Below are positions 14,928 to 16,778 of a stretch of 16,778 nucleotides of DNA, piece by piece. Every line of letters starts with the position of its first letter. Within the stretch, counting starts at the first letter, position 1. The DNA is from Escherichia coli (GTDB lineage: Bacteria; Pseudomonadota; Gammaproteobacteria; Enterobacterales; Enterobacteriaceae). A model generated the notes under the pieces. It was not told the DNA's origin and did not search any database. It saw only the letters and a program-made list of their open reading frames with translations. Location of the stretch: the NCBI RefSeq assembly GCF_003334255.1, contig NZ_QOWU01000076.1; one strand, given 5' to 3'. Made by a program: the position numbers and the translations under genes.

Positions 14928-15038
14928 ATGACAATAGAAAAACACGAAAGAAGCACTAAGGATTTGGTGAAAGCAGCAGTATCGGGATGGCTGGGCACTG
15001 CGCTTGAATTTATGGATTTCAAGAGTCATGCGTGTTAA
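14928..15038 (+). pseudogene. 5' remnant (36 codons) of an MHS-type MFS transporter gene (ydfJ-like), interrupted at a prophage junction
   Basis: MTIEKHERSTKDLVKAAVSGWLGTALEFMDF resembles the N-terminus and first TM motif (G..LE(W/F).DF) of ProP/ShiA-family transporters; the reading frame then diverges and stops. In K-12 a ydfJ gene is split by the Qin prophage (recalled, not verified). Confidence 0.5.
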
Positions 15039-15057
15039 CTATTTGATAAATATTAAA

Positions 15058-16338
15058 TTAATTTTTCATTGCTTCGTTATGGGGCATGGTTGGGGCAAAC
15101 TCGCTTAACTGTGTATTTAACAAAGCTACCTGTGCATTATTGTTTTCAGACATCCATTTTCCGTATACCTGAAATACCATTTGCGCATCTGCATGGCCCA
15201 TCTGGTTTGCTATAAATGCCGGGTTAGCACCAGCTGTCAGCGACCAGCAGGCATAAGTATGTCTCGACTGATATGATTTTCGATGGCGGAGTCCGGCACG
15301 TTTTATCGCTGCGTCCCACATCTGCCTTATTGAGTCAACGGTAAAATGGTCACCATAATTTTTTACTCTCGCTGACACTTCAGGTTGAAAAACAAAGGTG
15401 CATTTTTGTTTTTCTGTTCTGCCATACTCTCTGAGGTGAACATCAATGATATGCTCTTTGCTCAGTCTCGTTAATGTCATCTGACTCCGGAGAGCGTCGA
15501 TTGCTGGCTTAATAAGATGAATGACCCGATTGGTTCCCGCCTGTGTTTTTGGTACCGTGAAACGGTCTTTTGCTAAATTTCTCCTGATCATCATTGTTCC
15601 ATTTTTCAGATCTATGTCCTCCCATCCAAGTGCACACAGCTCACCAGGGCGAACTCCAGTATAAACAGAAACACACCATAAATTTTTTGCTTGCTGATTT
15701 CTGCACGCATCGATAAGACGGATAAATTCTTCCCGCGAAAGAGGATCCGGAATGGTTCTTGATTCCTTTAATGGCGAGATCCCCTTAAACGGATTATCTG
15801 CCAGGTAACCGTTATCAACACCAAACTGGAACACGGCGTTAAGATTTGTCATGTAATTATTTACAGTTACAGCCGATCTCCCTGGTTGTGTAACAATATA
15901 GTTACTTTTGGGGATCTGGTATCCAGTCAGTAACTCTTTACGAACCTCCAGTAATTTTTCTTTATTAATCGATGAGGCAAGATTTTTTTCACCGATTATG
16001 CTCAGGATATTTTTGATGACGGCACGGTATGTGTTGAGTGATGTTTTGGCGACTTCAGTTTCTTTCAGTGCCAGAAATTTTTCAGCCAGTTCTTTTATGG
16101 TTAAATCTTGTCGGGCCTCACCAAATTTTTCCAGATTGCGTGAGGAGGGAAACTGTTTTGCATAGTCGAAAACACCAGTTTTTATTGCGTAACAAACAGA
16201 GGAGCGTAGTTCACCTGCAACGCGCCTGTTTTTTGCTGTGTCAGGAACCCCCAGATTTTCCCTGACTCTTACGTCTTTATAAACAAACCAGATACGTAAT
16301 TTCCCTCCATGGTTTTCCACGCCTGTCGGATATTTCAT
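15058..16338 (-). CDS. Phage tyrosine integrase (lambda Int family), about 426 aa
   Basis: MKYPTGVENHGGKLRI N-terminus; catalytic-region motifs present (GVRPGEL, SRHTYACWSL, GHADAQMVFQVYGKW), so it appears intact. Start chosen at the ATG with a purine-rich RBS (alternative 16353). Occupies the position of intQ next to rspB in K-12. Confidence 0.85.
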   Translation of the reverse strand: MKYPTGVENHGGKLRIWFVYKDVRVRENLGVPDTAKNRRVAGELRSSVCYAIKTGVFDYAKQFPSSRNLEKFGEARQDLTIKELAEKFLALKETEVAKTSLNTYRAVIKNILSIIGEKNLASSINKEKLLEVRKELLTGYQIPKSNYIVTQPGRSAVTVNNYMTNLNAVFQFGVDNGYLADNPFKGISPLKESRTIPDPLSREEFIRLIDACRNQQAKNLWCVSVYTGVRPGELCALGWEDIDLKNGTMMIRRNLAKDRFTVPKTQAGTNRVIHLIKPAIDALRSQMTLTRLSKEHIIDVHLREYGRTEKQKCTFVFQPEVSARVKNYGDHFTVDSIRQMWDAAIKRAGLRHRKSYQSRHTYACWSLTAGANPAFIANQMGHADAQMVFQVYGKWMSENNNAQVALLNTQLSEFAPTMPHNEAMKN

Positions 16339-16372
16339 TTCAACTTCTCTCATTAGTTAGTGTGGCTTTTAG

Positions 16373-16624
16373 TCAAGTAAGATGACGTCTTGGTCTCGCT
16401 GATGCCTGGCGCTCAATCCAGCGATCAATTTCTTCCAGGTTGTAAAAGCATGGACTGTTATCCCATGGCATACCGTCATGAGCGACATGCTTATATTCCC
16501 TTCCTTCCATAAACGATTTTTCCCGGGCCTTTTTTAACGTACCTTTTTTTATTCCTTTCAGCGCAATTAACTGCTCTTCGGATACCCATTTGCCGGGAGA
16601 GACAATCATGATTACTTCGCTCAT
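16373..16624 (-). CDS. Small excisionase-like protein (83 aa) upstream of the integrase
   Basis: Position and size typical of a lambdoid xis gene; sequence resembles the putative-excisionase family as I recall it, but not lambda Xis itself. Confidence 0.45.
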   Translation of the reverse strand: MSEVIMIVSPGKWVSEEQLIALKGIKKGTLKKAREKSFMEGREYKHVAHDGMPWDNSPCFYNLEEIDRWIERQASARPRRHLT

Positions 16625-16696
16625 CGATTTCTTTATCTCTTACATCAGACGAGCGCCGGTTGCAGAATACCAGTCACAACCGGCGACAGTTGAACA

Positions 16697-16777
16697 TTAA
16701 GAATCAGCCTGACTCGGGATCAGTTTTTGCCAGATAACTGAAACGTATTTTGCCTGGTAACGGGCGTCATCAAGTGC
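16697..16777 (-). CDS. 3' end of an unidentified prophage gene whose start lies beyond the window
   Basis: Minus-strand frame is open from the window edge to the stop at 16697-16699 (...ALDDARYQAKYVSVIWQKLIPSQADS); followed by a 9-bp-stem hairpin (16654-16685). Confidence 0.3.
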   Translation of the reverse strand, partial: ALDDARYQAKYVSVIWQKLIPSQADS

Positions 16778-16778
16778 A

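Follow-up and report, generated by a model that had tools for sequence, protein, structure and literature searches.

Near the right end of a 16,778-nt stretch of Escherichia coli DNA (the window), a short reading frame that resembles the start of a transporter gene gives way to genes of phage type. What kind of junction is this, how is it related to the Qin prophage that occupies the corresponding position in K-12, and could the recombination genes beside it still act on it? The portion of the contig 5' of the junction is E. coli chromosome (ynfF, ynfE, ynfD, ynfC, speG, ynfB, ynfA, rspA, and rspB, by PGAP annotation of identical sequence). The last intact chromosomal gene ahead of the junction is rspB, encoding a Zn-dependent oxidoreductase (13851–14870, plus strand, as annotated on identical sequence in strain 26561), whose stop lies at 14870. 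The region that follows, 14928–16778, is very probably the attL (B-O-P') of a lambdoid prophage of the Qin family (mEp460-like, 'PPydfJ') inserted inside ydfJ. No observation speaks against this identification. The transporter remnant, minus-strand integrase gene and excisionase-like gene noted in the sequence-only reading are each present where it placed them.

The window ends at 16778, which is 1.7 kb into the prophage. The attR and the remainder are known only from three genomes (G1/2, G6/7, and G8; healthy human faeces, Germany) that match all 16,778 nt at 100%. Rfam detects no RNA families in 14928–16778, and a promoter and terminator scan gave no signal above shuffled expectation.

The split ydfJ gene and the attachment site

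The first feature of the junction is a plus-strand ORF at 14928–15038 whose 36-residue product is MTIEKHERSTKDLVKAAVSGWLGTALEFMDFKSHAC. It is a hybrid, comprising ydfJ codons 1–31 followed by five phage-derived codons (KSHAC) and a stop. Residues 1–31 agree at all 31 positions with YdfJ from strain 214-4, where the protein is intact (455 aa) and named MHS family MFS transporter YdfJ by PGAP, with 100% identity at the nucleotide level, and the whole ORF is letter-for-letter ynfP (b4534) of K-12. The fragment is too short for profile searches and yielded no profile matches, so that the direct comparison with ydfJ carries the assignment. Its stop at 15038 lies 20 nt ahead of the integrase stop codon (15058–15060). 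A 36-codon N-terminal remnant of an MHS-type transporter gene, ending just before the 3' end of the integrase gene, had been read from the letters of the window, and both the ydfJ homology and the position are confirmed here.

The reconstructed empty site, a 400-nt hybrid that joins the 5' part of ydfJ in the window to the 3' part at the other prophage end in strain 26561, exists without interruption, at 100% identity, in genomes free of the prophage. The exact identity to ydfJ and an empty site in 2009 genomes together lead us to reject a chance ORF; by these comparisons, the ydfJ match is not fortuitous. Integration very probably proceeded by Int-mediated site-specific recombination of the phage into codons 27–31 of the chromosomal transporter gene. 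The gene was thereby split, with the promoter-proximal 31 codons running into phage DNA and ending five codons on, as in ynfP of K-12, and the other 427 codons displaced to the opposite prophage end. In G1/2 that 3' part carries an in-frame 150-bp deletion, and precise excision from this genome would therefore yield a YdfJ of 405 rather than 455 residues.

Extension of the sequence rightward, in the 100%-matching genomes, reaches attR and the 3' part of ydfJ and defines the att core. In a four-way comparison of attL (window), attR (G1/2, 26561, and K-12), attB (214-4), and attP (mEp460_ev081), the exact common core TTATGGATTTC, at 15010–15020 of the window, is present in all four. The attL consists of the left half of attB and the right half of attP, and attR of the left half of attP and the right half of attB. 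This reciprocal pattern upholds the earlier identification of a lambdoid attL within a protein-coding gene. Similarity extends beyond the core as TGAAT(T)TATGGATTTC(A/C)AG, with one indel in the T-run and one A/C difference. The att sequence so delimited (TGAATTTATGGATTTCAAG, window 15005–15023) is 18 nt long in attP, against 19 nt in attB. On this alignment strand exchange must fall inside TTATGGATTTC, which is bounded by the T-run indel on the left and by the A/C difference on the right. Both lengths match those described for PPydfJ prophages, whose att sequence is given as 18 or 19 bp (PMC8112680). Across the junction, the predicted attB reads ...GCGCTTGAATTTATGGATTTCCAGTTATATTCGC... and the predicted attP reads ...CACCTGTGAATTATGGATTTCAAGAGTCATGCG....

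The contiguity of the DNA to the right of 15023 with a phage P' arm was checked and upheld by comparison with phage records. A 410-nt attP rebuilt from both prophage ends is contiguous in four of these, at 98–99.8% identity (PhiR42_1, 99.8%; mEp460_ev081, 99.0%; HannyBb, 98.8%; Tritos, 98.0%). The P' arm, of presumed extent 15024–15130, overlaps the 3' end of int. A search for arm-type sites within it turned up only short two-copy repeats, namely CAACTATYTGAWAAA at 15036–15050 and TTWTGGGGCAT.. at 15077–15097, each with one copy here and its partner in the P arm (mEp460 attP region). These paired repeats are candidate arm-type Int sites, and may serve as such.

Integrase and excisionase

The integrase gene (15058–16353, minus strand), identified by Pfam, by PHROG 1 / 216 integrase matches and by alignment with known Int proteins, is a full-length, intact form of K-12 intQ. 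Its ORF encodes 431 residues with zero internal stops; PGAP places the start at 16338, for a product of 426 residues (WP_000876958.1). The N-terminus matches the arm-DNA-binding family PF12167 (Arm-DNA-bind_2, residues 9–72, E 8.7e-22). Residues from about 85 to 196 give weak SAM-like matches (PF13102, PF14659, and PF24624; E 0.002–0.006), and from residue 156 onwards this putative core-binding stretch aligns with Tn1549 Int in its core-binding portion. The catalytic domain spans residues 206–397 (PF00589 Phage_integrase, E 8.7e-18). In an NCBIfam search the integrase gave only sub-threshold matches of Xer type, and the excisionase and the 36-residue ORF gave none. With residues 85–196 as the probable core-binding region, this domain order would be that of a heterobivalent lambda-type tyrosine integrase, as which the protein is classified from its sequence.

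The catalytic residues were placed by aligning the protein with structures of Tn1549 Int and with the integrases of VT1-Sakai and lambda, and are, in the numbering of the 431-residue product, R235, K269, Y361-x-x-R364, H387, and the nucleophile Y397. In box II, Tyr361 takes the place of the first histidine of HxxR. Tyrosine recombinases share the conserved pattern HxxRH[ST][FY]A at this position. MAFFT put the HELR of lambda three residues off, and the box II assignment rests on the Tn1549 alignment together with that pattern. The integrase of the Stx1 phage VT1-Sakai, 61% identical to the present one, has the same YQSRHTYACW stretch, from which Tyr361 is read as a trait of the family and not as a defect. 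Hidden defects were considered and rejected: the alignments show no disrupting mutation and no departure other than this H-to-Y exchange in box II, and the whole protein is a phage integrase, 100% identical to PhiR42_1 Int and 99.1–99.5% identical to those of mEp460_ev081 (99.1%), HannyBb, and Tritos. The earlier description of the integrase as apparently intact, with its catalytic-region motifs kept, is thus borne out by the uninterrupted frame and by R235, K269, R364, H387, and Y397.

Directly upstream of int on the same strand, and ending 19 nt before the int ORF start, lies xis (16373–16624, minus strand), whose 83-residue product is a predicted excisionase of the DUF1233 family. It matches the 'putative excisionase' profile PF06806 over positions 1–69 of 70 (E 1.9e-31) and the excisionase family PHROG 539 (E 1.4e-35), and has exactly the sequence of the PhiR42_1 and mEp460_ev081 excisionases (100% identity); PGAP names the product 'excisionase family protein' (WP_000005552.1). 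The two profile matches substantiate what had been called an excisionase-like gene beside the integrase. Beyond xis, the 3' end of an exonuclease gene (16697–16778, minus strand, from PGAP on identical sequence) is cut by the end of the window. The gene, 2472 nt in length, is the full-length form of the K-12 pseudogene ydfE, and its frame ends in ...IPSQADS before the stop.

The module follows the same logic as Int, Xis, and attP of phage lambda, with an arm-binding heterobivalent Int, a small Xis gene upstream of int, and attP immediately downstream, and int adjoins attL in the lambda prophage as it does in the window. However, lambda Int is only 25% identical to the window integrase, the lambda Xis belongs to a Pfam family other than DUF1233, and the system in the window differs in its core sequence, in having its target inside a coding gene, and in the YxxR of box II in place of HxxR.

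Relation to K-12 Qin and to free phages

Window positions 10766–16217 align by BLAST with MG1655 (NC_000913.3) at 99.96% identity, with two mismatches in 5452 nt. One falls in rspA (window 12585) and the other in int (window 15435), where K-12 intQ carries L307F. The alignment ends at 16217, one base beyond the IS2E remnant; this remnant abuts at 16217/16218 in MG1655, and the window runs on uninterrupted there. K-12 is without Int codons 1–45 (most of the arm-binding domain), without xis, and without part of the exonuclease gene ydfE, all of which a single IS2-associated deletion removed. The K-12 prophage, arranged as ynfP - intQ' - IS2E - ydfE' ... ydfJ', has the same integration site, att core, and hybrid ORF. 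Given the near-identity up to the IS2 breakpoint, we take the element in the window to be Qin itself, as it stood before the deletion seen in K-12 arose. The sequence-only reading was correct that the K-12 position holds a defective Qin with an intQ pseudogene; its separation of the present element from Qin does not stand, as this is probably a less decayed Qin.

The matching genomes extend this relationship. In G1/2 (GCF_014295315.1) the prophage measures 48.7 kb from core to core, with an intact attR, and contains the Qin early, immunity, toxin-antitoxin, cold-shock, and lysis genes together with a complete lambda-like set of head and tail genes that is absent from K-12. K-12 Qin aligns to 18.9 kb of these 48.7 kb at 99.9–100% identity; its genes dicA, dicB, relBE, hokD, cspB/F/I, essQ, rrrQ, nohA, and pinQ are all found in the prophage of the matching genomes, whereas the head and tail genes that it lacks amount to about 23 kb. 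K-12 Qin is, on this comparison, evidently a deletion derivative of the 48.7-kb prophage carried by the genomes that match the window. The longer form has damage of its own: tail gene U is frameshifted, ISEc12 lies in lom, a tail-fibre gene is split, and an ISNCY remnant is present. Qin of K-12 does not excise, which has been attributed to inactive intQ (PMC3105296). The prophage of the matching genomes may be 'grounded' for causes other than int.

From 15010 to 16630, a segment that includes the core, the P' arm, int, and xis, the window is identical to phage PhiR42_1 at 1621 of 1621 nt and about 99% identical to mEp460_ev081. These two phages, HannyBb, and Tritos share the exo–xis–int order of the window and hold a contiguous attP made up of the P arm of attR and the P' arm of the window attL; unlike the prophage junction described here, they are free phage genomes (P-O-P'). 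These phages differ from the G1/2 prophage in their head genes and in portions of the late region, and only 23.2 of the 48.7 kb of that prophage align with mEp460. mEp460_ev081 is a functional temperate phage with homologues of dicB, dicF, dicAC, and rem (PMC10448788). For PhiR42_1 a literature search returned no match, and it is taken to be an induced phage on the strength of the contiguous attP in its record. The PPydfJ prophages of STEC and EPEC are likewise lambda-like, located in ydfJ, and equipped with the 18/19-bp att sequence (PMC8112680), but they carry T3SS effector loci (nleC, nleG) and are often arranged as tandem prophage clusters, and neither the window nor the G1/2 prophage shows anything of the sort.

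Frequency and mobility of the junction

Earlier work has described every aspect of this feature, from its integration site and att sequence to the family of prophages and the live phages related to it, and it is very common. Among 5426 complete E. coli genomes, 2711 contain the attL junction (a contiguous 210-nt stretch, at least 80% covered), and 2299 hold at least 80% of the 1908 nt that comprise the junction, int, and xis. The empty attB, counted as at least 80% of the 400-nt ydfJ hybrid in one place, occurs in 2009. An intact-looking int–xis pair is accordingly a common state and not a rarity. In published surveys, 48% of strains had Qin at the 5' end of ydfJ, and intQ was mutated in most of the Qin prophages examined (PMC6379469); in STEC, prophages at ydfJ are frequent and often clustered (PMC8112680).

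How would such a prophage leave? The xis and int genes follow the exonuclease gene at the 3' end of the leftward early operon (the dicBF operon in K-12), and relief of repression by DicA would allow leftward transcription to reach them. Int would bind the core and the arm sites, and Xis would direct the reaction towards excision. Aided by host factors, the two proteins would bring about exchange between attL and attR inside TTATGGATTTC, by which ydfJ would be made whole and the phage genome set free as a circle. We infer expression and excision from the analogy with lambda and from the exo–xis–int order downstream of a DicA-repressed leftward promoter; the order and regulation of the DicA-repressed operon are supported by the gene annotation of the G1/2 prophage and by published work (PMC10448788). 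In the matching genomes int, xis, and both att sites are intact in sequence. A deposited phage genome has the very same nucleotides in int, xis, and the P' arm, and on this ground it is reasonable to regard excision competence as plausible, and we lean towards it. Production of virions is doubtful and clearly less likely than excision, since the frameshift in gpU makes infectious particles harder to expect.

How far the prophage has decayed can be viewed in several ways. The junction might belong to a fully functional, inducible temperate phage like mEp460 or PhiR42_1, resident at the same att site, and not to a decayed Qin; the identity over 15010–16630 (100% with PhiR42_1, about 99% with mEp460_ev081) would be expected of such a phage, and the window itself covers only the first 1.7 kb. 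We consider this unlikely, as the only genomes identical over the whole window carry the 48.7-kb prophage with its pseudogenes, tail gene U included, and the non-structural regions of that prophage are 99.9–100% identical to K-12 Qin. Moreover, Qin and the mEp460/PhiR42_1 phages form one family, in which the distinction is the degree of decay. It is scarcely conceivable that the 36-codon ORF arose by chance and that the integrase gene is a subtly defective pseudogene. Such a view could point to the tyrosine in the HxxR box and to nothing else, and this YxxR variant is common to the VT1-Sakai integrase; against it, the 31 codons and their flanking DNA are exactly those of intact ydfJ, and the Int is 100% identical to that of a phage record in which attP is contiguous.

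A weightier alternative to a prophage that can still excise is one that is immobile despite a module intact in sequence, with int and xis poorly expressed, for example if DicA repressed them tightly or transcription terminated inside the long dicBF–exo operon, and with the junction a stable chromosomal feature. The same attL junction in half of the complete E. coli genomes suggests long-term vertical inheritance, and the in-frame 150-bp deletion in the ydfJ 3' part of G1/2 suggests long residence. Pseudogenes elsewhere in the prophage, and the tight repression of the K-12 dicBF operon under laboratory conditions (PMC10448788), are consistent with this. We give it appreciable credence, short of an even chance. 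Yet int and xis are free of decay and nucleotide-identical to those of a free phage, and in O26 strain 11368, which has an intact integrase, PCR yielded an amplicon from which the attP of a PPydfJ was read (PMC8112680; Nakamura et al. 2021), implying excised circles. The empty site in 2009 genomes also speaks for mobility, though it may be the ancestral state.

More speculatively, the 48.7-kb 'full-length Qin' of G1/2-type strains could be a still-mobile ancestor-state of K-12 Qin that excises on DicA derepression and might be packaged or mobilised via co-resident lambdoid prophages, with a functional YnfP peptide. We hold this to be improbable; if true, YnfP would be a lysogen-specific hybrid of 31 YdfJ residues and KSHAC with a function of its own.

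The value of the present analysis lies mainly in correct annotation. The window presents the undamaged form of the region that is intQ and xis in K-12, and this form could help to retrace the steps by which K-12 Qin was grounded and to choose natural strains for the study of Qin excision.

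A second prophage end in ynfG

A second lambdoid prophage has ynfG as its insertion site, and its end makes up the leftmost 4.7 kb of the window (1-4776). An 84-nt 5' remnant of this gene lies on the minus strand at 4693-4776, and homology to strains lacking the prophage starts at position 4692. With this end in ynfG at the left and the Qin end at the right, the 10.3 kb in between is therefore a chromosomal segment bordered by two prophages, both of which sit inside coding genes. Only 37 genomes contain 80% or more of the window's full length.

The ynfG prophage end carries, as cargo, a gene for a Panacea-domain protein (419-943, plus strand), an IbrB-like/IbrA-like pair (1032-1676 and 1661-2887, both minus strand) and an AntA/AntB antirepressor gene (3084-3875, minus strand). 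The PAPS-reductase-family protein of the IbrB-like/IbrA-like pair gives weak PADLOC matches to BrxP/DndC (E values of 2e-7 to 4e-4), and the cargo genes could represent a defence or DNA-modification moron. The same prophage end contains two minus-strand matches to the Rfam family sRNA-Xcc1 (RF02221), at 3754-3839 and 4288-4376, which score 73 and 69 bits, both above the gathering score; one of the two overlaps the antirepressor ORF in its 5' part.

Integrase variants and candidate arm-type sites

Residues 361-364 of the window integrase (15262-15273), in box II, read Y-Q-S-R rather than the canonical H-x-x-R, and the integrase of the Stx1 phage VT1-Sakai has the same stretch. K-12 intQ differs from the window at position 15435 (plus-strand A instead of G), resulting in an L307F substitution on top of the truncation by IS2.

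The attP region contains two short repeats, each with one copy per arm. The repeat CAACTATYTGAWAAA is located at 15036-15050 of the window (P' arm) and at 24697-24711 of the phage mEp460_ev081 region L007 (P arm), and TTWTGGGGCAT.. at 15077-15097 (P' arm) and L007 24621-24641 (P arm). Both are possible arm-type binding sites for the integrase, though two copies at such length may occur by chance.

The Qin prophage and attR in strain G1/2

Compared with K-12 Qin, the prophage of strain G1/2 (L003 about 6930-7320) is without an 876-bp segment carrying ydfA, ydfB and ydfC, which in K-12 lies between dicA and dicF/dicB (L002 20431-21306); the difference between the fuller Qin and K-12 Qin is thus not just one of additional genes. 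At attR, outside the window, the 3' part of ydfJ (L004 1978-3113 in strain G1/2) has a 150-bp in-frame deletion of YdfJ codons 250-299 in the genomes that are 100% identical to the window, so that excision in those genomes would not regain a full-length transporter.
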